The notes below the pieces were generated by a model that had not been told where the DNA came from, did no database searches, and saw only the letters and a list, made by a program, of their open reading frames with translations. Positions 17,065 through 49,356 of a DNA stretch of 64,000 nucleotides are shown here, in pieces; positions within the stretch are counted from its first letter, which is position 1; each line of letters starts with the position of its first letter. The stretch is from a virus, in IMG/VR virus record IMGVR_UViG_3300004094_000049. One strand, written 5' to 3'. A program made the position numbers and the translations under genes.

Positions 17065-17119
17065 TTTGGTAACAAACAAAGCCATGATATAATAAAACAA
17101 AAATAATAAAGGTACAAAT

Positions 17120-32430: not shown

Positions 32431-32514
32431 GCTAGATCATTCTATGAATCAATTAACTGAATGAACTGTTCTTTCAGATATGACAAATCCATTATTCACT
32501 TATTCCGAGCATAG

Positions 32515-32531
32515 TTAAATAACGGTCTAGT
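32515..32531 (+). repeat. 17-bp dispersed site, copy 1 (TTAAATAACGGTCTAGT)
   Basis: One mismatch to consensus TTAGATAACGGTCTAGT; intergenic, upstream of pilin. Confidence 0.85.
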
Positions 32532-32653
32532 GATCACGTTGTAGAAGCGAAACCAACTCTTGAACCATTATTTGAATTTTTGAATTAACTTTAACCAGCA
32601 CGCATGTTAGGATTAATAAAAATAATAATAATAACAATAATGGTAAACTAATT

Positions 32654-33118
32654 ATGCTTACATTGATAACGAGCATTATCGCAATTGCTCTTGTCGTTGT
32701 GATTGCTGCTGCTGGTGCTTACTTCGGCGGTGACATTTATGATGAATCAAAAATGGATGCAGAAGCCGCAAAACTCATGAATGAAGGTGCCCAAATTGTT
32801 GGCGCAATGACTGTTTATGAGAGTGATGGCAATTCAGTAGAGCAAGACTTTCAGCTAGAAAATCTCGTTGAAGAAAACTATTTAACAACTATCCCTGAAG
32901 GCTGGACAGCAGTGTCTGGCATGATTGCCGCCCCTATCGTTGGTACTGATGCCTACCAACAAGGTGTTTGTTTTACTGCAAACTCCGAAGCTGGTTACTT
33001 TTTTGAAGATCCTACCCGTGACGACGTAATTCCGTATGAAGCTGATCCAGATTACGCCATCCCATACTGTGACTATGAAGACCTATCCCACATGGTTCCA
33101 TGTTGCGTTCTTCGGTAA
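32654..33118 (+). CDS. type IV pilin-like protein
   Basis: Hydrophobic N-terminal helix MLTLITSIIAIALVVVIAAAGAYFGG, then amphipathic helix EAAKLMNEGAQIVGA and C-terminal Cys pairs; no clear class III leader. Confidence 0.6.
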   Translation: MLTLITSIIAIALVVVIAAAGAYFGGDIYDESKMDAEAAKLMNEGAQIVGAMTVYESDGNSVEQDFQLENLVEENYLTTIPEGWTAVSGMIAAPIVGTDAYQQGVCFTANSEAGYFFEDPTRDDVIPYEADPDYAIPYCDYEDLSHMVPCCVLR

Positions 33119-33162
33119 CTTTTCTGGTGGTCAGTAGCCACCATTTCAATTGGTGACTATCA

Positions 33163-34326
33163 ATGACACTTAACAAAATTACACTTCTATTGGCTACAAT
33201 AGTCGCACCAGCCGCTATTGCATCAGGTAGCTTTATTATTAGAGCGCCAATAGAAGCAGATCTGTCTCAATGGCAAATTATGCCTCCTGATTTCTCTGAT
33301 TGGGAATCTATAAGCGAACCATACAATTGTTCTGCATGGTCTCCAGATACATTCACTGTTCACGTTGGTGAATCTTTCACGCAAGAACAGTCATGTAGCC
33401 AAGATTTTGAAAGAACTGTCACAGTGAATGAATATGATAATTTCACTGGAGAAGTTCGAGTCGTATCAGAAGAAACTGAGACAGACACCCAATCCATCGA
33501 AAATTCGCGTGACGCCTCTGGAACAAGAGAAATCCTTGAGCCAGAAGAGTCTGGGTGGATAAACGATGGCGAAGCATATGATTGCACCGAATGGACTCCA
33601 AATGTTGATACCGTTGCGGCAGGAACACAATTTGACCAAGCAAGAAGCTGCTCTCAAGACCAATCAAATACTACTACCATTTGGGCCGAGGATATTTCTA
33701 CTGGTGAAAGGGAAATTGAAGACCAATTCATTACAGAACAAACAATCACGACTTCTGAGACTCAGACTGCAATCGGTACAAAAATCGTCAGGAATATGTG
33801 TGTTGATATCCTAAGTAGAGGTGAAAGCACTGGTAATGGAGTCTATTCGGTATTCCCAGAAGGTGGCACTGCTAGAAATGCCTATTGCGATATGAGTGGT
33901 GGCGGTTGGACTCTCTATGACTCTTTTGGTAGTCAACTGGTTCATACTGGAGGGGCAAACCCCTCTGCTTACAATGGCAATAACATCAATAGTACTTCAG
34001 GACTCAGTAGCGCTGGTTATACCTACTACCTTGATATTGTGAATACCACGTCTTATCACACTAGCCCTTTTTACATGCAAATGTTTTATGGTGGTCATAC
34101 AAGAGGCTGGGCAAAAAAGGTTATGCCATCCTGGGTAGACGGTGTAAAAGTCGAAATGTCTAACGCTTGGTATCAGCATGAAAGCTATGTTCATTATGGT
34201 AGCGAAACGCAAACCATTTGGGGCTATCAGGGCCATACAGAATTCGTTTTTTCTGGTGGTGGTAAAGAGCTGAAGCTTGAAGACTATAAAGGCATTATTT
34301 GGGCCGACTCGGTATGGGTGAAATAA
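33163..34326 (+). CDS. secreted repeat protein with C-terminal fibrinogen-like domain (adhesin candidate 1)
   Basis: Signal peptide, two ~65-70-aa Cys/Trp repeats, CVDIL...GNGVY...AYCDMSGGGWTL. Confidence 0.7.
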   Translation: MTLNKITLLLATIVAPAAIASGSFIIRAPIEADLSQWQIMPPDFSDWESISEPYNCSAWSPDTFTVHVGESFTQEQSCSQDFERTVTVNEYDNFTGEVRVVSEETETDTQSIENSRDASGTREILEPEESGWINDGEAYDCTEWTPNVDTVAAGTQFDQARSCSQDQSNTTTIWAEDISTGEREIEDQFITEQTITTSETQTAIGTKIVRNMCVDILSRGESTGNGVYSVFPEGGTARNAYCDMSGGGWTLYDSFGSQLVHTGGANPSAYNGNNINSTSGLSSAGYTYYLDIVNTTSYHTSPFYMQMFYGGHTRGWAKKVMPSWVDGVKVEMSNAWYQHESYVHYGSETQTIWGYQGHTEFVFSGGGKELKLEDYKGIIWADSVWVK

Positions 34327-35495
34327 TGAAATATAATGCAATATCAAAAATAGTCTTGGGCGGCGTGTTAATCATGCCTACCCTTTCAATTGCATCTGAG
34401 TACATAATTCGTGCTCCTGTTGATGCTGATTTATCCCAATGGCAAGTAATGCCGCCCATTTATGGAAATTGGGAAGAAACCAGTGAGCCGTACTCATGCA
34501 CTAACTGGACACCAGACTCATTCAGTTTTCTGGTCGGTGAATCGTTCGACCAAACCCAAAGTTGCTTGCAAGATTTCGAACGAACTGTAACTTACAAAGA
34601 ATACGATAGCTTTTCAGGTGAAGAAGTTGTCATTTCAACAGAAACGGAGTCAGATACACAGACTATAGAGAATGAGCGTATAGCTTCAGGAACACGTTCA
34701 ATTCTTCCTCCTGAGAGTTCTGGGTGGGTAGACGTAAACGAGCCTTATGAGTGCTCTGAGTGGACACCTCATGAATCAACTGTGGCTGAAGGGGTTGAGT
34801 TCATACAGACTCAATCCTGCTTGCAAGATCAAGAGGAAACCATCACAGTTTATGCGGAAGACATTTCAACAGGCCAAAGAGAGATCGAGTCTCAAGAGAC
34901 TAACAGCCACACAATAACTGTGACACATGAACAAGATAATGTTGGCACCAAAGTTGTTCGAAATATGTGTGTTGATATTCTTAATCGAGGCGAAAGCAAT
35001 GGTAATGGCGTATACAACGTAAGCCCTGATGGAGTGAACTATAGAAAAGCCTATTGCGATATGTCAGGTGGTGGATGGTCGTTGTTCGATTCATTCGGAA
35101 CTCAGTTAGTCAATACTGGTGGTGCAAACCCAGCCTCGTATAACGCTCAAAGCATTAATAGTGTTTCTGCTGCACAATCAGCAGGCTATACAACCCATAT
35201 TGAGTATGTGAACCATACTAATTACCATACATCTGCTTACTACATGCAGTACTTCTTCGGCGGTGCTAATTACGCATACATTCAGAAAGTCATGCCAAGT
35301 TGGGCCAAAGACGTTAAGGTGGCTTTAAGTAATCAGTGGATTGCATCTACAACAACCATATCATACGGCTCAAGCTCTAAAACGGCTGGTGCAAATGCAC
35401 CTCATGCTGAATACACTTTCTCAGGTGGAGGTCAACTGCTTAAGGTACGTGAAAATGGCGGTCTAGTTTGGATTGATTCGGTTTGGGTGAAGTAG
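34326..35495 (+). CDS. paralogous repeat protein with fibrinogen-like domain (adhesin candidate 2)
   Basis: TAATG-coupled start at 34326; same architecture, YCDMSGGGWSL, ends SVWVK. Confidence 0.7.
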   Translation: MKYNAISKIVLGGVLIMPTLSIASEYIIRAPVDADLSQWQVMPPIYGNWEETSEPYSCTNWTPDSFSFLVGESFDQTQSCLQDFERTVTYKEYDSFSGEEVVISTETESDTQTIENERIASGTRSILPPESSGWVDVNEPYECSEWTPHESTVAEGVEFIQTQSCLQDQEETITVYAEDISTGQREIESQETNSHTITVTHEQDNVGTKVVRNMCVDILNRGESNGNGVYNVSPDGVNYRKAYCDMSGGGWSLFDSFGTQLVNTGGANPASYNAQSINSVSAAQSAGYTTHIEYVNHTNYHTSAYYMQYFFGGANYAYIQKVMPSWAKDVKVALSNQWIASTTTISYGSSSKTAGANAPHAEYTFSGGGQLLKVRENGGLVWIDSVWVK

Positions 35496-35519
35496 CGTAG
35501 GCTTTATTGAGTCAAAGAA

Positions 35520-35547
35520 AAACGCTTTCCATAATTGGAAAGCGTTT
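35520..35547. terminator. bidirectional terminator
   Basis: AAACGCTTTCC-ATAATT-GGAAAGCGTTT. Confidence 0.7.
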
Positions 35548-35551
35548 ATTT

Positions 35552-36700
35552 TTACATACTTAACTCTGATTGAGTTGAGAGGCTTAAATCCGCCAATTCG
35601 ATTTTATCAATCACTTTATCTGCGAGTGCTTCAAGCTCAGGGTTTTCTTCCATAAAACTTTGCATGGAAAGAAGGGCAGCAGCAACGTAGCCCGATTCAC
35701 TTTTGCTGATACCACTCGTTCCACCAAATGGATTGTCATTCCATTTCTTGAACTTTTCATTCTTGTTATCAAAAATCGGTTTCGTTTGTTCATACACTGT
35801 GTATGAATTTTTAGATTCTTGGATATCGGCAAGAGTTAGCTTTTCTTCCATCATCAAGCTCAATAAATCAGTGTCATTTTTACCATTGATAGTAAATGCC
35901 ACTTCAGCTTCAGCTTCGAGTTTCGCTACACCCGCTACGTACTCTTCATCTGTAGTATGGTCAATGTTGTAACCTGACACCATGTAGTGAGATTTTGGAT
36001 TTTCTGTTGCCATGATGGTATCGAAGAATCGCTGCTTCTTACCTTCAATTACTAGATCTTTAAAGTCCTCAAAAAAATCACTCACCTTTTGCAAGTGAAC
36101 ATCTGAGTACACAACAGTAAACAGATCGGTATATGTACCAATCTCTACATCATTGCCCGTAGCTTCAATCGTCTTTTTCAGTTTGGCTCCAGTACCACCA
36201 AGATGCTTTTCAAATAAAGCTGTAATGTCTGTTTCCATTCTATCAACTTCAAACAAGCCATTTTTTGAATATGCATTGTATGCGTGGTAGCGACTTGTTC
36301 CAATGGACGTCGAATTAGTAAGGATTGGGTTTCCAGCGGCCTCTAGCATTAAGGAAACCTGTTCAAGCTTCGCTTGTGTCGGTTCGATGCTATCTTCAAG
36401 ATCTAAGCGAAGGCCCTTTTGCACTCTTATAGCTTTATCAATCTCATCGAGTGTTTCATTGTTTTTCTCAATTATTCGCTGAATAGCTTCAGATGCGCCT
36501 GGTTGAGTCAGTATGTCTTCAAAATTTTTGTTCGCGTTATTTAATGACGCTTTTTCACTTTCCAGATGCTGAGAAACCATAGAGATTTGTCTGCGCTTCA
36601 TGGGTACTTCTAAGATGCTCGACATTAGCTTTGCATAAGCGAAGTTTAGAGTATTCTCGCGTTTATCATTTGAAAGCTTAACAATAGAGATGTAAGGCAT
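35552..36700 (-). CDS. hypothetical coiled-coil protein
   Basis: 382-aa ORF. Confidence 0.65.
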   Translation of the reverse strand: MPYISIVKLSNDKRENTLNFAYAKLMSSILEVPMKRRQISMVSQHLESEKASLNNANKNFEDILTQPGASEAIQRIIEKNNETLDEIDKAIRVQKGLRLDLEDSIEPTQAKLEQVSLMLEAAGNPILTNSTSIGTSRYHAYNAYSKNGLFEVDRMETDITALFEKHLGGTGAKLKKTIEATGNDVEIGTYTDLFTVVYSDVHLQKVSDFFEDFKDLVIEGKKQRFFDTIMATENPKSHYMVSGYNIDHTTDEEYVAGVAKLEAEAEVAFTINGKNDTDLLSLMMEEKLTLADIQESKNSYTVYEQTKPIFDNKNEKFKKWNDNPFGGTSGISKSESGYVAAALLSMQSFMEENPELEALADKVIDKIELADLSLSTQSELSM

Positions 36701-36756
36701 GTTTTTCTCACTTTTTATATTTATTATACACTATATATCATAGGTCAACCAGAGCA

Positions 36757-37098
36757 TCATGAAGTGAGTTTACCTTCCGTTAGTCGCGTATGTAGCCATG
36801 CATCAAGTAACTCATAATTTCTCTCAATTAACTCTATAAAAAGACGATCTTCAAGTGCCTTGTTCTGCATCGCCTGACGCTTTACATGAGGATGCTCTAT
36901 ACCATTGAGAACAACATGCTGAACAACACTGGCCCTATCAATAAGCTGGTCATTCATAATTAAATTCACAGTAAGCAATCCATCATTGCTATCAATCACT
37001 TCATTTTGTGATGCAGATAAATCCAATTTACGCACCAGTATTCCATCACGCAGACCAATATTCTTTATTCGATCAATTCTTCTTGCTTTCCAACTCAT
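36757..37098 (-). CDS. hypothetical protein
   Basis: 113-aa ORF. Confidence 0.55.
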   Translation of the reverse strand: MSWKARRIDRIKNIGLRDGILVRKLDLSASQNEVIDSNDGLLTVNLIMNDQLIDRASVVQHVVLNGIEHPHVKRQAMQNKALEDRLFIELIERNYELLDAWLHTRLTEGKLTS

Positions 37099-37225
37099 TT
37101 GTACACCTAAAATGTAAGTTTAAAAATAACCAATTATTTAAACTATATTAAATGAACTTTGAGTGGTTTGCCAAATAAAAAGCCAACCTACTGGCTGGCT
37201 TCTCTGCTTAGTCTTAAAGGTCTAA

Positions 37226-38680
37226 CTAGATATTAACCTCAATGTAATTGTTATCCTGAAAAGCGGTATAGAATGGACTTTCCACCCTTAAAACTCCACC
37301 CATTAGGGTAACATGTACCTTGGTATTGGCCTTGATGGATGCAAGCTCGCATGCAGAAATTTCAGGGGCTACTTGCTGCTGAGCATCAGAATTATTAATG
37401 AAAAAATTGAACTTGTAGCCTAAAGGTCTAGATTGCGCCGCTAATGCACTATATCCAATGTCTTGATGCGCATAGTCCTGATCAATATTTACTACCATTG
37501 ATTTGCGCTCATGCTCTGGATTTAGCTTACTGAGTACGTTCGAGTTTGACTCCATCTCTTCCAGTAAGTGCTCCCTTAAAAGATCTGTCACTACCGATTT
37601 ATCGATTCGATGTAGGCATGTAATCACGTTGTGCTGGCCGACTTTAAATAAGTCGTCTTTCCTCAATCCATTGATGGCAAACAAATCATCATAGTTTTCA
37701 AGAGCAGATGTGATCGTCATTATGCAATAGCCCCATTGCTCATAGATGATTGGATCGATCTCATCCAATAGAAGTAGCTTATCAACTTTCATGAAAAAGA
37801 GATTTTCAACAAGCTCACTTTGTTTTTGGGAAAGTTTAGATGCATTATCTTTCACCAAGTTAAAAAAGTAATCGAGACTGATGACTTCAAAAAACTCTTG
37901 TCGGTTTTTAATTGATTTCAATTTATCTTTTGCCAAATATCTAATCAAATTGATGTAGGCCAAGGTACGCCCACTCCAGAAATTGGCTCTGGTGTTAAGG
38001 GCATACTGGATGGCTTTATCATAGTCCATGTAGTCACAGTGTAACTTGAAGTCCTTTCGGATTGTGCTCATCTCAATATTAAGGTCAGAGACTTCGTCTA
38101 GCTTTTCAAAGATTAAACTTTGGGGTGTTGTGCTATTTATCCATATCGACCCATCACAAGCCTCATACGCTTGTGCTGCGATTACTGAATGGACATCAAG
38201 CATTCTATCTAAACCACCTTCGTAGTACGAGTTGAAGGCTAGTATAGTTGTTGGTTGAGCAAGGAATTTTTCAGGCTCGAAGACAAAATCCTGCTTCTTA
38301 TTCAGCAGTAAATTGATAAATCCGAGGCGTCGATACTCAACATCCTCTACAAACTTCTTGAATCGATCATCTAGATAACCTTGTGACATCAGTTTTGCGT
38401 CAACCAAGGTAAAAATGTAGGTGTATTTTCTCTTCTGAAGAACTTCAATTTCTTCAATCGAGAGAGAGTCTAGTAAGCAATCTGTCTGCGCAAGAGCTTT
38501 GGTGTTTACTTTTTTATGATTGATACTAAATTGATTAAAGTTCGTCCAACCATATGAACGTGCTAAGCAGTTTTGTACGTCATTTAGGTTAATTTTGGAA
38601 CCAAAGTGCTTGCTTAACCGTTTTTGGAAGAATTTTGACTCATCTAAGAGAGGCTTTTCTGAAGCAAAGAAAATTCGCAT
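37226..38680 (-). CDS. protein with small N-terminal helical domain and degenerate IcmO/DotL-like C-terminus
   Basis: ATG at 38680 after A-rich leader; AQSRPLGYKFNF...ELASIKANTKVHV resembles AQARSLGFS...EAASIGANTNIK of type IVB coupling proteins. Confidence 0.5.
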   Translation of the reverse strand: MRIFFASEKPLLDESKFFQKRLSKHFGSKINLNDVQNCLARSYGWTNFNQFSINHKKVNTKALAQTDCLLDSLSIEEIEVLQKRKYTYIFTLVDAKLMSQGYLDDRFKKFVEDVEYRRLGFINLLLNKKQDFVFEPEKFLAQPTTILAFNSYYEGGLDRMLDVHSVIAAQAYEACDGSIWINSTTPQSLIFEKLDEVSDLNIEMSTIRKDFKLHCDYMDYDKAIQYALNTRANFWSGRTLAYINLIRYLAKDKLKSIKNRQEFFEVISLDYFFNLVKDNASKLSQKQSELVENLFFMKVDKLLLLDEIDPIIYEQWGYCIMTITSALENYDDLFAINGLRKDDLFKVGQHNVITCLHRIDKSVVTDLLREHLLEEMESNSNVLSKLNPEHERKSMVVNIDQDYAHQDIGYSALAAQSRPLGYKFNFFINNSDAQQQVAPEISACELASIKANTKVHVTLMGGVLRVESPFYTAFQDNNYIEVNI

Positions 38681-38879
38681 TATGTACCCTTTATTATTAT
38701 TTTTATTGTAGTGCTCACTGCTCCAACCTAATAATTTGGGTGGAGTAATTGTTTTTATTATTTTTGTAGTTGTCCAACGACGTGCCATTTGTGAGCGGCA
38801 TACGTACTACACGCCTATTTACTATTCCATAGGCGTGCAATTCAGTCAATTTATTAAAACTGATATTAGGGTAAGTTCT

Positions 38880-38896
38880 TTAGATAACGGTCTAGT
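38880..38896 (+). repeat. 17-bp dispersed site, copy 2 (TTAGATAACGGTCTAGT)
   Basis: Exact consensus, 8 bp beyond the stop of 38905..39165. Confidence 0.9.
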
Positions 38897-38904
38897 TAGG
38901 TGAT

Positions 38905-39165
38905 CTAATAGTCGTCCAGTGTTTCAATATAAACAGGAGAAGAAGGGCCATAGAAAGCATTAAAGACGTTGTATTCTAGGTACTCATGAGCTTCGTCTTG
39001 ATCCATTCCGTCTTTGACAAGGCATTGTAAGCAACGCTCTTGGGAATACACCACGTTATAATTTTCACCGTCATTGGTTAATCCAACAATTGCATCATCA
39101 AAGCCATCAGCAAAGTAAAACTCAATACCACGTTCTTCTGCTAACTGTTCTAATTTTTTTCTCAT
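38905..39165 (-). CDS. small acidic hypothetical protein of a type seen in phages and plasmids
   Basis: ADGFDDAIVG...VVYS...EAHEYLEYN. Confidence 0.7.
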   Translation of the reverse strand: MRKKLEQLAEERGIEFYFADGFDDAIVGLTNDGENYNVVYSQERCLQCLVKDGMDQDEAHEYLEYNVFNAFYGPSSPVYIETLDDY

Positions 39166-39353
39166 TATTATTATCCATTTTTTTAGATAGTATCATTGAT
39201 TTCTGCTTTTGTTAAATCTATTCCTGTGTCATTAGCTGTCCTAATTTGACCAATAACAATATTTCACAAATTAGAACCACATTTTATCAATTTTCGAGGT
39301 CATTCTTTGATATAATATTTCCAGTATAATAATAACAATCAGAGGCATTTTTT

Positions 39354-39917
39354 ATGCATATAATCCTAATTTTCCTTTCTATCTCAGCAGTCGTCGCTTT
39401 TTTACTTCACCTGGCAGTTAAGAAGTCTCATAACATGAAACCTGGTAATCTTGAGATTGAAAGAAAGTTCCTTGTTGATCCAGATAAGCTCCCGATTACC
39501 CTTAAGACAAAGAGTAAATTTATCAAACAGGGATATCTTACTCACGACACAGACAATACTGTTCGTGTTCGAATGGCCGATGACAAGTCACTGATGACAA
39601 TCAAATCTAAATCAACAGAAGATGGTCTGTCACGAACCGAGATTGAATTTGGTATTTCACACTCACACGCTTTTGAGCTTCTTAGCATGTGTAAAGGCGA
39701 TCTCATTGAAAAACGCCGTTACTTTATCACTTACAAAAAGCAGACTTTTGAAGTTGATGTCTTTGAAGGTGTTAACAAGGGGCTTATCATGGCTGAAATC
39801 GAGCTGACGTCACTTGACCAACAGGTTGACTTGCCTGAATGGATTACAAAAGAGATCACGGGTGATAAGCGCTATTACAACCGTTGGCTGAGCAACAACC
39901 CATTTAAAAACTGGTAG
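39354..39917 (+). CDS. CYTH-domain protein (triphosphatase / class IV adenylate cyclase fold) with N-terminal TM segment
   Basis: LEIERKFLV, IKQGYL, VRVR, EKRRY, MAEIEL. Confidence 0.88.
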   Translation: MHIILIFLSISAVVAFLLHLAVKKSHNMKPGNLEIERKFLVDPDKLPITLKTKSKFIKQGYLTHDTDNTVRVRMADDKSLMTIKSKSTEDGLSRTEIEFGISHSHAFELLSMCKGDLIEKRRYFITYKKQTFEVDVFEGVNKGLIMAEIELTSLDQQVDLPEWITKEITGDKRYYNRWLSNNPFKNW

Positions 39918-39944
39918 TTGTACTTTTAAATCCATCAAATGACC

Positions 39945-39961
39945 TTAGATAACGGTCTAAT
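39945..39961 (+). repeat. 17-bp dispersed site, copy 3 (TTAGATAACGGTCTAAT)
   Basis: One mismatch; immediately upstream of the tyrosine recombinase gene. Confidence 0.88.
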
Positions 39962-40038
39962 GCCTGAAATACAAACCTTCTAGCAAAATCACTCTTTTGC
40001 TTTATACTGACAAGGTTATTGTTTTTCAGGCATTTTTT

Positions 40039-41349: not shown

Positions 41350-41435
41350 CATGCCGCCCCTATAATGGGGCGAATCATTCGATTTTCTTTCTCTGTTCCG
41401 TATAATGGTGAAAAATAATAAGAAGAATCAATTAT

Positions 41436-42344
41436 ATGTTAGGTGCAATCATTGGCGACATTGTAGGTAGCCAGTATGAATTCTCTAATCGAAAAGGCTT
41501 TTATCTTCCACTTTTCTCAGGTCAGATATCAACATCTACCGAAGGTGTATCAACATTTACCGATGATACAATTTTAACATTAGCTACAGCGTCACAATTA
41601 AAGGCAGATGTTTCAGAGCCTGATTTTCGTTCCGCTTATCTCCGATATTTCTCCAACTACAGCGGCCAGAAAGCTAACGGGCCTGGCATTGGTGTGGGGT
41701 TTGGAGGAATGTTTGTTCGATGGGCTATGGGGGAAGATGAAGACTATGCGCCTTACAATAGCTGGGGTAACGGTGGGGCAATGAGAGTCAGTCCTGTGGC
41801 TTGGTTTGCTCAATCTGAAGAAGAAGTATTAAGACTCGCCAAAGCTTCTTCAATGGTCACACACAGCCACCAGCAAGGCATAGATGGCTCACAAGCTGTT
41901 GCATTAGCAATCTGGTTGGCTAGACAAGGAAAATCCAGTGATGCCATTTATGAGGCCATGAGCGAACGATTTGGCTATCGCTTCAATTTCACTTTGGACT
42001 ATTTAGAGCGAACCTACGTCTTTAGCGAGTATGCTAGGGACTCTGTCCCTCAAGCGATTTTTTGTGCTCTTGAGGCTGATTGTTTTGAAGATGCATTAAG
42101 GAATGTTCTTAAAATTGGGGGTGATACTGACACAATTGGCGCGATGGCAGGTTCGATTGCACAAGCGAAGTACGGGATACCACCTCGATTCTATTCATTT
42201 CTCAACCCGCTTGAGAAATGGGCACCAGAGCTTTATGAAGAAGCCATGGCCTTTCATAATGAATACTGTCGAGATTCAATAGTGCCAAAAGACATTGGAT
42301 TGTTTGAGAGATTTAAGAGAAAGTATAAGGAACATCGTTGCTAG
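41436..42344 (+). CDS. ADP-ribosylglycohydrolase (DraG/ARH family) 1
   Basis: MLGAIIGDIVG, FTDDTILT, SWGNGGAMRVSP, TH, GGDTDTIGAMAG. Confidence 0.92.
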   Translation: MLGAIIGDIVGSQYEFSNRKGFYLPLFSGQISTSTEGVSTFTDDTILTLATASQLKADVSEPDFRSAYLRYFSNYSGQKANGPGIGVGFGGMFVRWAMGEDEDYAPYNSWGNGGAMRVSPVAWFAQSEEEVLRLAKASSMVTHSHQQGIDGSQAVALAIWLARQGKSSDAIYEAMSERFGYRFNFTLDYLERTYVFSEYARDSVPQAIFCALEADCFEDALRNVLKIGGDTDTIGAMAGSIAQAKYGIPPRFYSFLNPLEKWAPELYEEAMAFHNEYCRDSIVPKDIGLFERFKRKYKEHRC

Positions 42345-42432
42345 TTTTTGAAATACATATTGTATGTCCTGTTGAGTAAAATCTTAAATATGTCTATTTT
42401 TTTTCAACTAGAAGTTTAACTTGGAGGCGTTA

Positions 42433-43401
42433 ATGTTCTTGGAGTTTGGTTTAACACTAGATAATGATTACATTCATGTCTCTGAAGTCGAGAGTGGCGC
42501 ATGTGACGTAGTTTGCCCTTTTTGCAAAGGCGAGTTGATAGCAAAAAAAGGTAAGATTAAATCGCACCATTTTGCACATGCCCAAGATACCTGTGCTGAA
42601 TCTTTACAGGTCATTCAGCAGATTCAGATCCCTACTATTGATACGTTTGAGTACTTAGATACCAGTGAGAAGAAATACATGGATCGCCGTAGTCGGTATG
42701 ACCATAGTTCCATCTTCTCATGGAAAGGTATGAATCAAGCAATCAAGCGACTTAATGCCATGGGCCTGGTAGAGATCAGTAGGAAAGAGTCACGAGAGAT
42801 ATTGGATGCTAAGTCACAACTGAAGGAATTGACCTCATTATTTCATGCAGATGGAAGTCCTAAACCCGAATTTTATGCCGTTCTAGAGGCACTTGAACCC
42901 ATATGCAAGGCCAAATCTAAATGGAAACGTGGTGAAACGGTCGATGTGAAAATAAGTCGTGATTACTTTAAGCATGAGATCAGGCACCCAGAATCTACAT
43001 CACTTAACGCCCTATCAAAAAGTCAGCTTTTCTGGATGGATGCCTTTCGTAAAAGACAAGAAGCGTTTTTCCCAGAATGTCTTGAAATGCTTGATTTGAA
43101 AATGAAATACATCGATAGCCAAAATTTGTACCTAATGCAATTTACCAATGGCACTGAGATCATTCATAAGATTGGTGTGACGACAAAGAGCGCGACTCAA
43201 AGGCTGAAGGAAGTAGAGCGAATGATTAAGTCATATGGATTCTATGATGGACAGGTTCTATGTGTGGTTCCTAATATGGGTCGAGTTGAGAGGCTTGCAC
43301 ACCGTCATTACAAAACTCAGCACTATAAGTTGGGCCGTTTCCAAGAGTTCTTTTCATTTAAAGACATTAACGCTGTAGAAGGTGTCCTTAAATCACTTTA
43401 A
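42433..43401 (+). CDS. CoiA-like zinc-finger plus GIY-YIG/T5orf172-like domain protein
   Basis: CPFCKGELIAKKGKIKSHHFAH; C-term LYLM...HKIGVTTK...RLKE. Confidence 0.6.
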   Translation: MFLEFGLTLDNDYIHVSEVESGACDVVCPFCKGELIAKKGKIKSHHFAHAQDTCAESLQVIQQIQIPTIDTFEYLDTSEKKYMDRRSRYDHSSIFSWKGMNQAIKRLNAMGLVEISRKESREILDAKSQLKELTSLFHADGSPKPEFYAVLEALEPICKAKSKWKRGETVDVKISRDYFKHEIRHPESTSLNALSKSQLFWMDAFRKRQEAFFPECLEMLDLKMKYIDSQNLYLMQFTNGTEIIHKIGVTTKSATQRLKEVERMIKSYGFYDGQVLCVVPNMGRVERLAHRHYKTQHYKLGRFQEFFSFKDINAVEGVLKSL

Positions 43402-43510
43402 CCTTGTCTTGATGTCCTCAAAATCAAATTTTGTGTCCTCAACTGCACATAATGTCCTTAAATATTGATTATCCCCTGTCTTGATAGTAAGTTTAACCCA
43501 ATTAAGGACA
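43383..43510. repeat. cluster of TGTCCTYAA motifs upstream of the Fic gene
   Basis: Direct copies at 43383, 43413, 43434, 43453 and an inverted copy TTAAGGACA at 43502. Confidence 0.75.
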
Positions 43511-43526
43511 TTTTAAGTGACTGCAT

Positions 43527-44942
43527 GTGAATTTAAGACATTATATCGATGAAGAGCTTGCCCTGCTCCTGGAGGCTGTTAGCGCTTCAGAGAGTGCCCT
43601 CACCATTAATGAGGTAGCCAAGAATGTTCAGCTAGATATCTCGGACAAAACCCTTCAAAGAAGACTCAAGCGATTAGTATCTGAAGGCAAGATTACAACT
43701 GAAGGATCTGGCCGTGGCCTTAAGTATAAGGCTTCAGAGAATAGCCTCATTAAATCTTCTAAGCCTGAAGATCTGATCTCTGAGCCTGCTGTCATGACTG
43801 GCAATATCATATTTTCTCAAGAGTCATTAAGGAAACTAGAGAGACTTGATACGCCATCTTTTGCTCGCGATAAGGTGTCTTATGATACATCGCTTGTTGA
43901 GAAGTACGTGCCAAATACGACGCGCTTCGTGTCACCTGAATTGTCGAGCCGCCTTGTCGAAATGGGTAAGCGGTTCAACAGTAAGTTGGCCGCAGGGACT
44001 TATGCAAAGGATATTGCTCAACGTCTTTTAATCGACCTGTCATACAACTCCAGCCGCTTAGAGGGTAATACGTACTCTATTCTCGATACGGAGAAGTTAC
44101 TTGAGATTGGTGAGGTAGCAGATGGCAAGATGGATGAAGAAACAATCATGCTTCTTAACCACAAGGAAGCGATCTTGTTTCTGATCGAGAACGCCGAAGA
44201 GTTAACCATTAGCCCTTTTGTTATACGCAATATTCATCAATTGCTTTCACAAGATTTACTTGATGAGCCTTATATGTCGGGGCAAATTAGGGAGAAAGAA
44301 GTAAAGATCACCATGACTTCTTACTTGCCCGTCAGTGGATTTCAACTTCTTGAGGAACTGTTTACATTATTGCTACGAAAAGCTAGTCAAATCACTGACC
44401 CGTTTGAGCAGTCTTTCTTTTTGCTCATTCACTTGTCATACCTACAAGCATTCATTGACGTCAATAAGCGAACGGCTCGACTTAGCTGTAATCTGCCTTT
44501 CATTAAAGACAACCTGTGCCCATTGAGCTTTGTTGATGTGCCCAAAGATGACTATCTGCGTTCTTTGGTGTATTTCTATGAGACAGGTGATCATCAGCCT
44601 TGTCTTGAGGTGTTTATGTGGGCTTATGAGCGTTCTAGCCAGCAATACACGGTTGTTGAGAAATCGATGGGTAAGATTGATGCTTATCGAATCAAGTATC
44701 GTGCTAAACGTAAAGAAGTTATTGGTCGTATAATTCGTGATATGGTTGTTGGGGCTAATATTGCAATCATTTTAGAGCAGTTTTGCCTTGAGAACAAAAT
44801 TGAAAATCCAGACAAGTTTATCTCTATCGTTACAGTTGAACTAAGCAAGCTGCACAGTGGTGCTATTTTAACGCTAGGCGTGACTGAAAGCACATTCATA
44901 GATTGGCAAGCAAAGTACAAAAAATCACAGGAATTTAAGTAA
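43527..44942 (+). CDS. Fic-domain protein with N-terminal HTH
   Basis: LSYNSSRLEGN, Fic-like YLQAFIDVNKRTARL; HTH ISDKTLQRRLKRL. Confidence 0.85.
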   Translation: MNLRHYIDEELALLLEAVSASESALTINEVAKNVQLDISDKTLQRRLKRLVSEGKITTEGSGRGLKYKASENSLIKSSKPEDLISEPAVMTGNIIFSQESLRKLERLDTPSFARDKVSYDTSLVEKYVPNTTRFVSPELSSRLVEMGKRFNSKLAAGTYAKDIAQRLLIDLSYNSSRLEGNTYSILDTEKLLEIGEVADGKMDEETIMLLNHKEAILFLIENAEELTISPFVIRNIHQLLSQDLLDEPYMSGQIREKEVKITMTSYLPVSGFQLLEELFTLLLRKASQITDPFEQSFFLLIHLSYLQAFIDVNKRTARLSCNLPFIKDNLCPLSFVDVPKDDYLRSLVYFYETGDHQPCLEVFMWAYERSSQQYTVVEKSMGKIDAYRIKYRAKRKEVIGRIIRDMVVGANIAIILEQFCLENKIENPDKFISIVTVELSKLHSGAILTLGVTESTFIDWQAKYKKSQEFK

Positions 44943-45355
44943 TGCAGTCGATAGATCAGCACATAATTAAGATGCTTGAGGACATGAGAGAAAGGCTGGC
45001 GCTTCAATGCGACGGCTTTTGTCAGCTCGCTTCACACTACCTGACTGAAATGGGCATTGATCATGAAATAGCTGGTGGATATATGCTATTTAATCAGCAA
45101 CACATACAGCACTTTTGGATCGAGTTTACTGATACTCCTTTCATTGCTGACTACTGTGCTCGCATGTGGTTTCCAACGCTTGGTGAGGCAGTGCCACACG
45201 GGGTCTTTAAGATAGCGGATTACAGGGAAAACTATATCTTTGAGAAATACGCAAAAAGTGGTGAGCTTTCTAAGCTACTTGTCAGCATTCATGAGTCAGA
45301 TACTAAGGAGCTTTGGGAAAACAGTCTCAAGCAACTGTCTAAACAAACTCATTAA
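44942..45355 (+). CDS. hypothetical protein with possible Cys-His transglutaminase-like core
   Basis: TAATG-coupled to Fic gene; QCDGFC...HFWIE. Confidence 0.55.
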   Translation: MQSIDQHIIKMLEDMRERLALQCDGFCQLASHYLTEMGIDHEIAGGYMLFNQQHIQHFWIEFTDTPFIADYCARMWFPTLGEAVPHGVFKIADYRENYIFEKYAKSGELSKLLVSIHESDTKELWENSLKQLSKQTH

Positions 45356-45388
45356 ATCATAGAGCACGATTAGTGCTCTTTTTTATAG

Positions 45389-45844
45389 TCATACACCGTA
45401 GAACTCATCAATCAAGCTTTTGAATCGCGATAGAAATTCTTTGTCGGTATCAATCTCAACACCATATTTTCTTTCAGCATTTCTAAATTCGTCTATCAGA
45501 CGCCCTTCTCTCTCATTGTGAGTGCCAGATAGAATTGTGCTTATCTCATCCCATGTGTTTTCTGGATCGCCGCCCCTTGCGTCAGATTCAATCTTAAACT
45601 TGAGGGTTGCTAGAAACAGATCTCTAGGTTCAAGGCGCAATGCTTTCGCGGTCGCGATGATTTTTCCATATGGTAGGCCCATCTTACCTTTGCTGAGCAA
45701 GGTTAATGCTGGAGAGTCTGTCTTAGATTCTTTGCGAGCCAGTCCGATTTCACGCACAAGCGCTTGATTGTTGGCATCTGGCCGATTTCGCAATCCTAAC
45801 TTGATGAGGTCACTTAATTCTAAATGATCATGATTGTGCTTCAT
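45389..45844 (-). CDS. XRE-like HTH transcriptional regulator
   Basis: LTLLSKGKMGLPYGKIIATAKALRLEPRDLF. Confidence 0.6.
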   Translation of the reverse strand: MKHNHDHLELSDLIKLGLRNRPDANNQALVREIGLARKESKTDSPALTLLSKGKMGLPYGKIIATAKALRLEPRDLFLATLKFKIESDARGGDPENTWDEISTILSGTHNEREGRLIDEFRNAERKYGVEIDTDKEFLSRFKSLIDEFYGV

Positions 45845-46115
45845 TTTAATCTACTCTATGTTTGTCTTTCGTCAGGCAGTTCCACCTTGCGATTTATCTT
45901 TACCAATTGGCCTACGATTATATTAAATAAAATAAACGACTCATATCTAAGAGGAACAATGAGTCAAAACCATTATTGGTTTATAAAGTATGGCGTTTAT
46001 GCGCTTAGCATTCAAGTGAGCGGTTCCAAAATGTCATTAAGTTCACACGCTATAAATTGTTCTCCCTTACTTTATGCATTAATATTTCATAAATTATCGA
46101 AAAAGAGTGAATTCT

Positions 46116-46424
46116 ATGTCAGATGAATTAGGTTTGGCTTTACTTGAGTACATTGCAACAGGTGAAGGTAGAACATTTCTCGCCTTTACTGGCTCTAAAT
46201 CCGAAGCTCTAGATTGGTTTGGTGATTACTTTGCCATAGGAATGGTCTTTAAGACGGATTCTGAATGGCTTGCACTGGATTCCAAGTCGGATTTATCTAA
46301 GCAAGAAGAGGAAGACTTTTGTTTTCTTCAAGTCTTTAAGGATGAATGCCCAAATGCTTGGACAATGTTTTCCATGGGCCGTAAACCAAGTATTGCCTAC
46401 AGGTTCCACTATAACGTGTCTTGA
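46116..46424 (+). CDS. hypothetical protein
   Basis: ~102 aa from ATG 46116, followed by a hairpin. Confidence 0.5.
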   Translation: MSDELGLALLEYIATGEGRTFLAFTGSKSEALDWFGDYFAIGMVFKTDSEWLALDSKSDLSKQEEEDFCFLQVFKDECPNAWTMFSMGRKPSIAYRFHYNVS

Positions 46425-46456
46425 GTGTTGAAAATAATGGCCCTAAGGGCCATTGT

Positions 46457-47269
46457 TCACTTGATGTGGCCGATCATTCTATCTAGAAAGCTCGGCTGAG
46501 AAGGGTGACTCATTTTGACGGGAAACTCGCGGTAATGCTCTTCTATAATTCCCCATAGCCCTGGGTGGCTTACTTTTAGTTTTTGGCTAACAATGGCGGC
46601 ATACTCACTGTCTAAGCCGATTAAGAGTTCAAACCAATAGGAGCCTAAGAACATTGCATAGATGTTCTCTTGTTCGCGCAAGTACTTCATCGTGTCTCTG
46701 AAACAATCACTAAGCAATGCATCATAAGCAACGTACATAGCATCAATCAGTTGCTCGTTGTAAAGTTGCTCGCAGAGCTTTTCTACTTTGGTTGGGATTT
46801 CTATGTTTAGCTCTGACTTTTCCAGCAAAGCGGTGATCTGAAGAATAGTCAGGATGTCTGATGCATCCTCATCTGTTCTGGCATATGTTGAAATCAAATC
46901 TGCTTGAGTAAGCCAATGATCGCCATTTTTTCTAATCGCTAACACAAAAGGCAGTAAGATACGCAGCGGCAGGTTTGAAATTCGCTCGGTTATACCTGTC
47001 ACCCAATCAAGAAGCTCCATATCCATTTGGTCGGTTAACATCGGATAATGACGTGTTGCTTCAGGGATATACCGTTTCAACGTTGTGCCCAGCATATCGA
47101 TAGGATCAACGCCAGTTCGAGACGAAAATAGCGCAGTGCCTGTCGCAACAGAAGAGATGTTGAGTGGGAGCTTCTGGAGTTCTAACTCAACATGCTTATC
47201 ATTTGTCATCACTTCTGTTTTCATTTGAGAAAACAGCTCAGATAAAATCAAACTGATCATTACCACCAC
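46457..47269 (-). CDS. hypothetical protein coupled to ARH2
   Basis: Overlaps or closely follows the ARH2 stop; start uncertain. Confidence 0.6.
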   Translation of the reverse strand: MVVMISLILSELFSQMKTEVMTNDKHVELELQKLPLNISSVATGTALFSSRTGVDPIDMLGTTLKRYIPEATRHYPMLTDQMDMELLDWVTGITERISNLPLRILLPFVLAIRKNGDHWLTQADLISTYARTDEDASDILTILQITALLEKSELNIEIPTKVEKLCEQLYNEQLIDAMYVAYDALLSDCFRDTMKYLREQENIYAMFLGSYWFELLIGLDSEYAAIVSQKLKVSHPGLWGIIEEHYREFPVKMSHPSQPSFLDRMIGHIK

Positions 47270-48108
47270 CTCTTGAAAGATTGTTGCTTTTTGAAGCCGA
47301 CTTCTTCGCGAAACTGAATATACAACTTGTACAGTTCAGGCTCATGATCTTCTAAAATTGTAAGGGCCTTGGTTTCGACTTCTGAATCTATTCCAAAAAA
47401 AGCCTCTGCAATACCACCAGCGATTGCGCCTGTTGTATCACTGTCGCCACCGACGTACTGAACTAAGCGCATGGTTTCTTCAAACGAATCCGATTCTAAA
47501 AAGCAGTAGATGGCAACGGGCACTGACCCTTTTGCTGACACATCAAAGCGATACTTTTCACGGAGCACTTGAGTTTGGAAGAAAAGATCATAACCAATGA
47601 CATCTTCTATATAGCTCTTGATGTCTTTTTTTGTGCCGCCCATACGCGCAATGTAAATCGACATCGCGGTAGCTACTGCACCTTTGATACCTTCTGCATG
47701 ATTGTGCGTACACTTGGCGCTTTTAATGCTTTCAATGAGGACGGTACGATGATCGTTGTTGGCCCACGCTATAGGACTTACACGCATTGCTGCGCCATTA
47801 CCCCAACTGTTGTAGGGTGTCGGGTCGTAATTGTAATTTCGCGCCCATTGAGCAAACATTTCGCCAAAACCAACCTTATGCTTCTGCTCTGTATCTATTT
47901 CTTCATGGATATACTTGCGAGCCATTGAGGCATAATGATTCTCATAGTTACTAGACCCACCAAGTATGGTTTTTGCAGTCGCTAGAGTCAGTAATGTATC
48001 ATCTGTAAATGAGCTACCCTCAGGAAATAGCTCAAAGGCATAATCTGGCTTTGTATCAGAAAACTCGAAAGTACTTCCAATAATGTCGCCAATAATTGCA
48101 CCCAACAT
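47260..48108 (-). CDS. ADP-ribosylglycohydrolase (DraG/ARH family) 2
   Basis: MLGAIIGDIIG, FTDDTLLT, SWGNGAAMRVSP, THNH, GGDSDTTGAIAG. Confidence 0.92.
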   Translation of the reverse strand: MLGAIIGDIIGSTFEFSDTKPDYAFELFPEGSSFTDDTLLTLATAKTILGGSSNYENHYASMARKYIHEEIDTEQKHKVGFGEMFAQWARNYNYDPTPYNSWGNGAAMRVSPIAWANNDHRTVLIESIKSAKCTHNHAEGIKGAVATAMSIYIARMGGTKKDIKSYIEDVIGYDLFFQTQVLREKYRFDVSAKGSVPVAIYCFLESDSFEETMRLVQYVGGDSDTTGAIAGGIAEAFFGIDSEVETKALTILEDHEPELYKLYIQFREEVGFKKQQSFKRWW

Positions 48109-48188
48109 ATTATTATTCCATTTATTAGTAACGGTAAGGTATAATACGCCAATTTCGATTAAAGTTAAATAATATAAAGTATATTAGA

Positions 48189-49235
48189 ATGAAGAAAGCC
48201 TTTGTATTTGGTGGGATTTTGACCGCCCTATATTCAATCTCTGCAATTGCATCTCCTGAACATATGGATGTGGAAAATCATATGGATTCTAAAGAGATTT
48301 TCCATAGGTTGTCCACCTTGATTGTCACACCCTATCACCTTCCAACTCACAACTTCAAAAAGCGGATCTACTTTGGAGCTGATACCGAGCAGGCTTGTGA
48401 ATTTCGCGATAAAGGTTTCATTAATTTTGTAGACCTGGAAGGTGGCCGAGTAACGAACATTGACTTAGATTTCGACATGCCAAGTCAAAAAGCCATGCTT
48501 GAGACAGATCCCGAAGAGGTGGCTAGCGTTATTAAGCGTGCTGGGAATCAAGCAAAAGAGCAATGCTTTGATGTGGTTCTGGGGCCAGTGACTGACTATG
48601 GTGTCACAGACAGAGAGTTGTACCAGATGGCGGACAAGCCAACAATCGATACTTCAGGCGCGACCAAGCGACTGGCTAAGATAGCTCAAGTTTATGAAGA
48701 TATGGGAATTATCCCAACCTATAAACATTACCCTGTCACTAAATTCATTGGTGATAGCCCCGAATATAGGAGCATGTCTCAGAAGTACATCAAGACGCCA
48801 GACGAACTCTATAATGGCTATGTCGAAGCAGAGCCTAAAACCATTAAAGATAGTGAAAGCTCTGAATACAAACAGGTGGTTAGCGATGTTGAAAAGCAGA
48901 TAAATACTGGCCCTCAAAGGTCAATGGTTATGCTAGCTAACTATGCAATCAAAGAGTACGGATACCTACCCTATGTTATGAGCGATGCACCACAGCACGA
49001 TCCTGTTTTAAAGAACTACGATGGCTTGATCATTACGGATGACCTTTACCAAATCAGAATCAATAGCGATACCAGCACCAAGATTTTTAAGAATGCGGAT
49101 TTGTTCATCATAACAAGCCTTGAAGACCTACAAACATTCGTAAGGAACATTGCCACGGCCACACATGGCTCTATAGAGATGCAAGAACTGCTGATTGAAA
49201 AGTCTGATAAGGTAGATGCGTTTTTTGAGCAATGA
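48189..49235 (+). CDS. secreted GH3 N-terminal-domain protein (NagZ-like)
   Basis: Signal peptide; VDLEGGRV, YKHYP, DGLIITDDL. Confidence 0.65.
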   Translation: MKKAFVFGGILTALYSISAIASPEHMDVENHMDSKEIFHRLSTLIVTPYHLPTHNFKKRIYFGADTEQACEFRDKGFINFVDLEGGRVTNIDLDFDMPSQKAMLETDPEEVASVIKRAGNQAKEQCFDVVLGPVTDYGVTDRELYQMADKPTIDTSGATKRLAKIAQVYEDMGIIPTYKHYPVTKFIGDSPEYRSMSQKYIKTPDELYNGYVEAEPKTIKDSESSEYKQVVSDVEKQINTGPQRSMVMLANYAIKEYGYLPYVMSDAPQHDPVLKNYDGLIITDDLYQIRINSDTSTKIFKNADLFIITSLEDLQTFVRNIATATHGSIEMQELLIEKSDKVDAFFEQ

Positions 49236-49339
49236 TCTGTTCAACTTTCTTGGTGTAGAAAAGTCGAACAAGAGGTTTTGGTATCAAAATTAATCCCAAC
49301 ACTTATCTTGAGCAGTGATAATGTTGGGATTTCAATATA

Positions 49340-49356
49340 TTAGATAACGGTCTAGT
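49340..49356 (+). repeat. 17-bp dispersed site, copy 4 (TTAGATAACGGTCTAGT)
   Basis: Exact consensus, 1 bp from the stop of 49358..49852. Confidence 0.9.

Follow-up and report, generated by a model that had tools for sequence, protein, structure and literature searches.

Co-oriented 19-bp asymmetric sites at gene-block edges and a neighbouring Xer/Cre-like recombinase gene on low-GC Vibrionaceae mega-replicons

Analysis of a 64-kb window (the whole stretch of DNA analysed) reveals four co-oriented copies of a short, asymmetric, intergenic site, one of them directly upstream of the gene for a tyrosine recombinase. Together with copies on a 794-kb replicon of Vibrio owensii (locus L008), on a third contig (L010) and elsewhere on the window's own 207,163-bp contig (L115), they amount to 12 copies in four loci, representing eight independent sites, and all 12 are co-oriented within their loci. 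From the observed sites, their conservation, polarity and position, and from the nature of the enzyme, we infer that the recombinase binds the sites and exchanges strands at them. We tentatively favour the reading that they are the core sites of this adjacent Xer/Cre-like recombinase and mark the junctions of gene modules.

The sites in the window and the gene blocks between them

Scanning of the 64-kb window gave four plus-strand matches with at most one mismatch, at 32515, 38880, 39945 and 49340, bearing out the initial annotation. Chance would give 0.14 copies (up to three mismatches, both strands) and none of 100 shuffled windows reached four. A search with the 12-nt core (up to two mismatches, both strands) found no degenerate or inverted further copies in the 64 kb. 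All four copies are intergenic, as had been described, in a window of which 11.9% is intergenic. The spacings between them range from 1.05 to 9.4 kb; the tandem spacing of about 20 bp typical of iterons of the Rep-initiator type is absent and no Rep family was found in the window. The sites, given with their full 19-bp block, and the genes around them are as follows.

32513..32531, plus strand: site 1, 17-mer at 32515-32531, TTAAATAACGGTCTAGT
32654..38788, both strands: block bounded by sites 1 and 2, with one pilin-like gene and a pair of adhesin paralogs (plus), then genes for 382-, 113- and 520-aa proteins (minus)
38878..38896, plus strand: site 2 (S_a), exact 17-mer, orthologous to L008:8816 and L010:1146
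38905..39165, minus strand: 86-aa acidic protein, phrog_13182, function unknown
39354..39917, plus strand: protein with a CYTH domain and a hydrophobic segment at the N-terminus, encoded by the second gene of module M2
39943..39961, plus strand: site 3 (S_b), TTAGATAACGGTCTAAT, orthologous to L008:9871 and L010:2197
40039..41349, plus strand: tyrosine recombinase of 436 aa (P0001), Pfam Phage_integrase
41436..49235: part of the block from site 3 to site 4 that lies beyond the integrase gene, with two ADP-ribosylglycohydrolases, the first followed by a lineage-specific stretch and a 270-aa gene, the second by a 348-aa gene
49338..49356, plus strand: site 4, exact 17-mer, between convergent genes
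49358..49852, minus strand: lineage-specific predicted lipoprotein of 164 aa, whose stop codon abuts site 4

Site 1 is located between divergently oriented genes: a minus-strand 109-aa ORF starts 85 nt away on one side, and the pilin-like gene lies 122 nt downstream on the other. S_a ends 8 nt before the stop codon of the minus-strand 86-aa ORF and lies 31 nt upstream of the predicted -35 element of the 520-aa gene (predicted promoter TTGACT-17-AATAGT). S_b is situated 27 nt past the stop codon of the CYTH gene and 77 nt upstream of the integrase ATG (40039), with its centre near -62 of the likely integrase promoter. Site 4 ends 1 nt before the stop codon of the minus-strand lipoprotein ORF. 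The positions of one copy directly upstream of the integrase gene (39945) and of two copies abutting stop codons (38880 and 49340), both noted in the initial annotation, are thus confirmed. Over the eight independent sites, a stop codon is abutted or overlapped at five (-4 to +8 nt), always with the same gene polarity, a placement that applies to 3.1% of intergenic positions. Two of the proteins encoded next to the sites can be rejected as DNA binders, the 86-aa product being acidic and without a match to a DNA-binding family, and the 164-aa product being a lipoprotein.

The sites had been proposed to delimit shufflable gene blocks, and a comparison of gene content across relatives agrees with this in part. 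Three copies (sites 1 and 4, and L008:7121) each lie at the edge of lineage-specific genes. The pilin-adhesin part of the first block has no counterpart in V. owensii, and both site 4 and the lipoprotein ORF are missing at the syntenic loci L008, L010 and L174. In L010, S_a marks the end of an 872-nt insertion, after which the sequence is again homologous to L008 from exactly CC plus the 17-mer onwards. A further lineage-specific stretch (42421-46424) carries CoiA_N/T5orf172, Fic and small ORFs. However, no lineage-specific block is flanked by two sites, the indels between relatives abutting sites on one side, and module M2 (the 86-aa and CYTH genes, 1.05 kb) is conserved, with S_a on one side and S_b on the other in each of the three relatives. 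The label GH3, earlier given to the 348-aa protein (48189-49235), has no Pfam support.

Anatomy, conservation and distribution of the site

Alignment of the 12 copies reveals a conserved block of 19 bp rather than 17 bp, with a C two bases upstream of the 17-mer in 10 of 12 copies and the consensus layout C-M-TTWRWTAAC / GGTCTA / GTTA. The left arm is strong, 11 bp long and ends in GATAAC; the centre, GGTCTA, is invariant and asymmetric; the right arm is weak and inverted, consisting of GT followed by T and by A in seven of 12 copies each. Complete invariance is seen at positions 6-15 and 17. In all, the invariant part comes to no more than about 13 bp, with the second arm barely above background, although two sites in L008 have perfect GATAAC/GTTATC arms. 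This layout would be compatible with an 11-6-11 core whose two arms are of unequal strength. The short inverted arms (TAGA/TCTA) described earlier had been held against a recombinase site, an objection that is weakened because the arms exceed the earlier estimate.

Outside the 19-bp block the flanks of the 12 sites have nothing in common. The motif itself folds into a stem of 4 bp at most, and neither attC-like boxes or hairpins (57-141 bp, R''/L''...L'/R') nor a consistent adjacent hairpin was found at the 12 sites. Inspection by eye gave no convincing match to a downstream sigma-54 promoter, an IHF site, a DnaA box or dif, the similarity to the XerD arm of dif being 7/11. A literature search with the core sequence returned only unrelated papers.

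S_a and S_b are present at orthologous positions in the window, L008 and L010, where they form the sole long invariant blocks in the orthologous intergenic alignments, the rest of the intergenic DNA being unalignable. The proteins flanking them are 24-65% identical between relatives, and the integrase, the best-conserved protein of the neighbourhood, 72-77%. Judged from this pattern of sequence conservation, the site is under strong selection. L008 holds three copies (7121, 8816 and 9871) against 0.02 expected, at about 349-352 kb of the 794-kb record and hence near mid-replicon, and L010 holds two (1146 and 2197).

The initial annotation had found no copy elsewhere, which is correct for the window but not for the replicon, as L115, outside the window on the same 207,163-bp contig, has three more co-oriented copies (4250, 6463 and 9799) among unrelated genes. 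The clustering of four copies around the recombinase gene is real, but copies are not confined to the integrase neighbourhood. No recombinase is encoded within about 4 kb of L115, and the best 120 homologues of the integrase (down to about 54% identity) include no second integrase on the 207-kb contig.

The distribution of the site is narrow. A scan of 185,579 species genomes and IMG/VR gave only single chance matches, in unrelated taxa; among the matches listed in the metagenome scan there were, besides L115, only single matches and an unrelated 66-bp tandem repeat (L066, L091). The site is absent from a 341-kb plasmid of V. breoganii that carries a homologue of the 86-aa protein, and from a contig of V. 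fluvialis on which the 597-aa gene of L115 has a homologue. PLSDB and phage collections contained no relative of the locus (megablast with 38-42 kb) and no tblastn match to the 270-, 520- and 338-aa proteins, and IMG/VR contained no relative of the integrase. The other members of the integrase family, whether lone genes on chromosomes, copies on plasmids or part of a phage-like contig, lack dispersed repeats of this kind; the phage-like relative L009 has a dispersed, promoter-linked motif of its own. The sites would appear to be protein-recognition sites specific to one rare family of low-GC Vibrionaceae mega-replicons.

The recombinase and the possible roles of the sites

Sequence comparison and modelling indicate that the integrase is a Xer/Cre-like enzyme with intact catalytic residues. 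R245, K279, H375, R378, H402 and Y411 are invariant in 24 homologues, and the model has a Xer/Cre-like two-domain fold, with XerA, XerH, XerD and Cre as best matches, preceded by a helical N-terminal extension of about 125 extra residues. It is not an integrase of the IntI type (17.7 bits with the NCBIfam model integrase_gron, cutoff 265). S_b is located upstream of its gene in all three relatives.

As core sites of this enzyme, the conserved 11-bp arm would be the binding arm of the recombinase, the invariant asymmetric GGTCTA would be the 6-bp crossover region that sets the direction of the site, and the weakly conserved inverted second arm would complete the core. Conservative recombination into such a site would always generate direct repeats, which would explain the uniform orientation of the copies in a cluster, their presence at the junctions of operon-sized blocks, in many cases directly at a stop codon, and the lineage-restricted copies at the edge of lineage-restricted genes. 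Of the possibilities raised in the initial annotation, recombination sites are the best supported, by the intact enzyme, the 11-6-11 fit and the co-orientation. However, M2 has been kept between direct sites in three deeply diverged replicons, which counts against this reading, as excision of the module would be predicted for a simple Cre- or Xer-like system. Free shuffling is therefore unsupported, and any exchange would have to be infrequent or under tight control, given that the 86-aa/CYTH module has remained between its two direct sites since the replicons diverged. No circles or deletions joined at any site, as excisable blocks might yield, were seen in the contigs of two runs (X1 and X2), which is weak evidence because contigs, unlike reads, drop rare variants. 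Comparison with these runs gave only adapter-caused contig breaks at or near the sites and no joints there. Hybrid or half sites that could be recombination scars are no commoner than expected by chance: CGGTCTAGT occurs at 35459, and L115 has a single left-half match. Further points against the recombination reading are that no lineage-specific block has a site on both sides, that L115 has no recombinase within about 4 kb, that related integrases lack such repeats, and that the second arm is so weakly conserved.

It is also conceivable, but rather unlikely, that the sites are operators or architectural sites of a replicon-encoded protein that controls promoters or loops the DNA between sites, the binder being some regulator or the integrase as a mere binder or autoregulator. 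The promoter-proximal position of many sites agrees with the operator network suggested earlier: six of the eight independent sites precede a gene start by about 70-250 nt, and the positions of S_b and S_a relative to the likely integrase promoter and the predicted 520-aa gene promoter fit as well. Global operators of the KorA/KorB type are element-specific and sharply conserved, as this site is, and the promoter-linked motif of L009 offers a parallel. However, two to three independent sites lie between convergent gene ends without a promoter (site 4, L115:6463 and S_a in L010), the next gene starts 92 nt away from S_a in the window but 237-468 nt away in L008, and site orientation is uniform though the flanking genes face both ways. 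In addition, an invariant centre with a varying arm is the opposite of what a dimeric operator would show, and the search of the surroundings revealed no conserved regulator. The frequent position behind stop codons, with fixed polarity, would suit an RNA-level 3'-UTR element, transcribed as ACUAGACCGUUAUCUAA after the stop, that binds a protein or small RNA or affects the stability of the mRNA 3' end; a hairpin follows 8-41 nt further downstream at sites 2 and 4 and at L115:4250. This is quite improbable, since the best-conserved site, S_b, follows the CYTH stop in the opposite polarity, site 1 and L115:9799 lie in 5' regions, and the stem of the motif does not exceed 4 bp.

The strict co-orientation, asymmetry, intergenic location and clustering of the sites are reminiscent of a Ter-like barrier or guide of replicon polarity, in which a monomer-bound asymmetric site acts one way on forks, a translocase or RNA polymerase. 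The mid-replicon position of the V. owensii cluster and the cumulative GC skew of the window, which reaches its maximum near 26 kb, then stays level and declines from about 50 kb on, point in the same direction, but the skew is a weak signal with gene orientation as a confounder. We consider such a role improbable, as no opposed partner group was found in the 64-kb window or in 39 kb of V. owensii, two separate clusters lie on one 207-kb contig, and no candidate binding protein was found. Least probable is a parS-like cluster of centromere sites onto which a partition protein would load, also among the earlier suggestions. Chromosomal parS sites are dispersed and intergenic, and the present sites resemble them in this and in being element-specific. 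However, they are asymmetric, co-oriented and non-palindromic, and Pfam detected neither ParA nor ParB among the scanned window ORFs. The V. fluvialis contig, which shares one homologous gene, has ParA beside a tandem array of seven 19-bp iterons, and such an array is the usual form of a plasmid centromere.

Relation to known systems and significance

The closest parallels to a recombinase-site pair of this kind are the single-recombinase Xer/Cre systems (XerH/difH, XerS/difSL, Cre/loxP and the Cre-like systems of Vibrio and Shewanella plasmids), which share the two-domain fold, the full catalytic set and the site directly upstream of the recombinase gene, and to whose order of arm, 6-bp asymmetric centre and second arm the present site, with its unequal arms, may conform. 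However, those systems have one site per replicon for dimer resolution, whereas here at least seven co-oriented copies per replicon border gene blocks, conservation of the second arm is minimal and the enzyme has the extra N-terminal residues.

The sfx sites of the shufflon are 19-bp tyrosine-recombinase sites with one conserved arm plus core, the other arm varying (PMC11852207), and so provide a precedent for a recombination site with a single strong arm. With sfx/Rci of plasmid R64 the present system shares this anatomy (17-19 bp here) and the grouping of multiple copies in the vicinity of a tyrosine recombinase, on a large plasmid and not far from pilus-type genes. In contrast, sfx sites are inverted, lie inside pilV coding segments and drive inversions, while here all copies are direct and intergenic, with no inverted copy. 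With integrons (attC/attI and IntI) it shares a topology in which a site lies upstream of the integrase gene and the genes on one side mostly read away from it (in L008, all but CYTH), with sites in a single orientation right at the 3' ends of those genes. The differences are that the sites here are 17-19-bp duplex motifs without an attC-like hairpin, that the integrase is not IntI-like, and that the modules are operon-sized with their own promoters, one of them being anciently conserved. KorA/KorB sites of IncP plasmids and Ter sites (Tus, RTP) are likewise few, sharply conserved, element-specific and spread over the replicon, with one site in the promoter region of a gene possibly encoding the binder; however, KorA/KorB sites are palindromes without an orientation rule and Ter sites form two opposed groups, and neither pattern nor either protein was found here.

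A wider proposal, which we regard as unlikely as it stands, is that the recombinase and its 19-bp asymmetric sites form a platform for gene-module exchange on giant Vibrionaceae replicons. Operon-sized modules with their own promoters would be inserted at co-oriented duplex sites at gene 3' ends and occasionally excised, making the system an analogue of the integron without IntI and without folded attC sites.

If the integrase does act at these sites, large secondary replicons would have a second route, simpler in mechanism, by which accessory operons are assembled and reshuffled, in this case operons with ADP-ribosylation, NAD, Fic and adhesin genes, and a new pair of recombinase and short site would be available for genome engineering. 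Even if the sites are bound but never recombined, 17-19 bp kept letter-perfect between neighbours of 24-65% identity would represent a novel cis-acting function in a barely sampled family of Vibrio-type replicons of 0.2-0.8 Mb.

The 17-mer in the window and in related replicons

The 17-mer, which together with the two bases before it follows the pattern C-M-TTWRWTAACGGTCTART, is present in four + strand copies in the 64-kb window, each with at most one mismatch. At a tolerance of up to three mismatches, counting both strands, chance would give 0.14 copies, and four copies were reached in 0 of 100 shuffles, which bears out the four co-oriented sites reported in the initial annotation. Its statement that the rest of the window lacks the site also holds, as a more permissive search with a 12-nt core turned up neither degenerate nor inverted copies across the 64 kb. 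The 17-mer is the sole multi-copy short direct repeat of such quality in the window, and all four copies are intergenic, compared with 11.9% of the window as a whole.

Sites and features around the recombinase gene (window coordinates unless stated)
32515, +, site; lineage-specific, adjoins the pilin-adhesin operon
38880, +, site S_a
39354–39917, +, CYTH gene
39945, +, site S_b
40039–41349, +, 436-aa Xer/Cre-like tyrosine recombinase (integrase)
42421–46424, variable stretch; CoiA_N/T5orf172, Fic and small ORFs in the window, a 236-aa gene in V. owensii, a 121-aa gene in L010
49340, +, site; lineage-specific, with a 164-aa lipoprotein gene
L008:7121 (V. owensii), site; lineage-specific, adjoins four V. 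owensii-specific genes

Window DNA is present in one annelid-metagenome sample, represented by two runs, and the window proteins are located on a 207,163-bp contig. Judged by its gene content, this is probably a large accessory replicon from a Gram-negative host. Its genes encode a ribonucleotide reductase, Dam methylase and UvrD helicase, NrtR, macro, PARP and Fic proteins, two ADP-ribosylglycohydrolases, outer-membrane beta-barrel proteins and a sigma-54 activator, together with numerous orphan genes. The closest relative is the 794,527-bp Vibrio owensii record CP187391.1, with synteny over at least 39 kb, and a 12-kb contig (L010) is a third relative; PLSDB and the phage collection searched contained no relative of the locus. 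The CYTH protein, which has an N-terminal hydrophobic segment, shows 51–55% similarity to Bacteroidota CYTH proteins versus 43–48% to the syntenic CYTH of the two relatives.

There are three copies of the motif in V. owensii and two in L010, with identical orientation relative to the integrase throughout. S_a and S_b occupy orthologous positions in all three replicons, S_a lying 0–8 nt past the stop codon of an 86/87-aa acidic protein and S_b 77–116 nt upstream of the integrase start. The 1.05 kb between them (module M2) carries the 86-aa gene (−) and the CYTH gene (+). The integrase is the best-conserved protein (72–77% identity) and its neighbours are just 24–65% identical, while the site forms the only long invariant block in the aligned S_a and S_b intergenic regions. 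A site that stays letter-perfect in otherwise unalignable DNA must be under purifying selection. Between S_b and the integrase promoter, V. owensii (L008:9915–9945) and L010 (~2240–2270) also have an inverted DnaA-box-like pair (TTATCCAC, 7 nt, GTGGATAA), which is absent from the window.

A scan of 185,579 prokaryotic species, with one genome each, returned 37 single matches, all from unrelated taxa, with Vibrionaceae giving none; IMG/VR gave six single matches. Neither a 341-kb V. breoganii plasmid nor a V. fluvialis contig with one gene in common with L115 has the site. L115, the one real locus among the matches listed in the metagenome scan, carries three co-oriented copies within 5.5 kb and shares none of its proteins with the window. 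However, L115 proteins are present in the window's sample and the longest contig for one of them is 207,163 bp, equal to the window's own, so L115 very probably represents a different stretch of the replicon that carries the window. Taken together, these scans indicate that the sites belong to the replicon family and not to the host. The clustering around a tyrosine recombinase proposed earlier stands for the window and for V. owensii, where the 39 kb scanned contains only three copies, all within 2.8 kb of the integrase, but the L115 copies lie elsewhere, and the sites extend beyond the integrase neighbourhood. In the searchable literature the core sequence turns up in just two unrelated papers, probably as primers.

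Directly beside the exact site at L115:4250 is a degenerate second copy, TTTGATAACGATACCTT (4267–4283, minus strand, 11/17 matches). On the V. fluvialis contig (strain PG41, L177), 97-bp tandem-repeat arrays are found on both sides of a homologue of the L115 597-aa gene, and seven 19-bp iterons adjoin a ParA gene (9338–9720, 11999–12837, 19171–19343).

Architecture and genomic position of the site

Across 12 copies, positions 1, 2, 6–15 and 17 are invariant, positions 3–5 and 16 each have two alternative bases, and a C is present two bases 5' of the motif in 10 copies. The TAGA/TCTA arms first described around TAACGG are just 4–5 bp long, with the left arm being the most variable part. An 11-bp arm ending in GATAAC, an asymmetric 6-bp centre (GGTCTA) and a right arm beginning with GT fit the sequences better. 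The two bases after this GT are T and A, each in 7/12 copies, and two V. owensii sites have perfect GATAAC/GTTATC arms. This layout would correspond to the 11-6-11 geometry of Xer-type sites, one arm being strong and the other weak; for the shufflon recombinase Rci, sites with conservation limited to the core and a single arm are documented (PMC11852207).

Counting orthologues once leaves eight independent sites. In five of these (S_a, 49340, L008:7121, L115:4250 and L115:6463), the motif abuts or overlaps a stop codon (−4 to +8 nt) belonging to the gene on its right, which is on the opposite strand; just 3.1% of the window's intergenic 17-mer positions have this property, and at two of the five the stop codon lies within the motif. 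The other three (S_b, 32515 and L115:9799) are located ~70–250 nt upstream of gene starts. Three junctions (49340, L115:6463 and S_a in L010) lie between convergent gene ends. Many window genes (e.g. 762–793, 17078–17109, 41387–41423 and 32600–32650) have a strong TATAAT box, with an A-rich AAAAATAATAA leader after it, just 15–35 nt ahead of the start codon, and several have no obvious Shine-Dalgarno sequence.

Every site copy that is not common to the relatives lies at an edge of lineage-specific genes. Directly left of S_a in L010 is a unit of 872 nt made up of a promoter, a 245-aa gene and a terminator, and homology to V. owensii restarts after it exactly at CC plus the 17-mer. However, no lineage-specific block, this unit included, has sites on both sides, half-sites occur at chance level only, and the site is absent at two other indels, namely the 42421–46424 stretch (between the first ADP-ribosylglycohydrolase and a 270-aa gene), which is replaced in each relative, and a 450-aa gene at 52691. 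The comparison is hence suggestive rather than decisive. In the contigs of the two runs, which are continuous across S_a and S_b, no recombination joint was found at any site; contig breaks at sites are adapter artefacts. In one run (X1), a contig connects 33701 directly with 34960 and so lacks 1258 nt between the two tandem adhesin paralogs; either a collapsed assembly or a variant in the population that carries one hybrid adhesin could account for this.

The recombinase and its family

The recombinase has a complete catalytic set, invariant across 24 homologues, and scores far under the cutoffs of the XerC, XerD and integron integrase models. Its AlphaFold model (mean pLDDT 75.8) is nearest to XerA, XerH, XerD, the lambda Int core and Cre; the enzyme is thus a simple recombinase of two domains, to which a helical region is added at the N terminus. 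Homologues with 54–61% identity are solitary genes in ordinary chromosomal surroundings, further ones are found on Shewanella and Vibrio plasmids, and a 73% homologue lies on a phage-like contig. Neither the motif nor a comparable dispersed repeat was found around the chromosomal, plasmid or phage-like homologues examined. On the S. baltica plasmid pSbal01, one copy of a perfect 10-6-10 palindrome whose arms end in GATAA (ATGCCGATAA ATAACG TTATCGGCAT) is located ~70 nt upstream of the integrase homologue, and could be a candidate site of that integrase or equally a terminator. The phage-like contig, V. parahaemolyticus JARNUW010000002.1 (2785–17204), with its 73%-identical integrase, has its own dispersed co-oriented motif, AATATTTTAAATATAA, directly followed in several copies by a TTGACA −35 box, and a repeated terminator hairpin, CCCCGCCAAGTGCGGGG.

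Possible roles of the site

The favoured reading, plausible though short of probable, is that the sites are core sites of the adjacent recombinase which mark junctions of inserted modules. Co-orientation, the invariant asymmetric centre and the one-strong-arm geometry argue for this, as do the Xer/Cre-like nature of the enzyme, whose own gene has a copy upstream, and the location of copies at block edges and stop codons. Four points stand against it: M2 has been kept between direct sites since the replicons diverged, no recent insertion has a site on each side, the second cluster is remote, and similar repeats are absent around other members of the integrase family. If the sites are such core sites, exchange would have to be rare or controlled; alternatively, being asymmetric, the sites may be held back from recombining with direct copies, as proposed for the sfx sites of Rci.

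An operator or architectural site is doubtful, given the copies between convergent genes and the orientation rule. That orientation might suggest a polar barrier, which we regard as improbable since neither an opposed site group (in 64 kb of the window and 39 kb of V. owensii) nor a candidate protein was found, and a 3'-UTR element, to which the stop-codon positions might point, is slightly less credible again as it fails for S_b. A centromere is very unlikely, because the site lacks symmetry, its neighbourhood has no Par genes, and the ParA gene of the V. fluvialis contig adjoins a tandem iteron array.

At the minimum, the site is a new cis element under strong constraint in a replicon family that has barely been sampled; at the maximum, it would be part of an integron-like platform for gene modules that relies on a simple recombinase.
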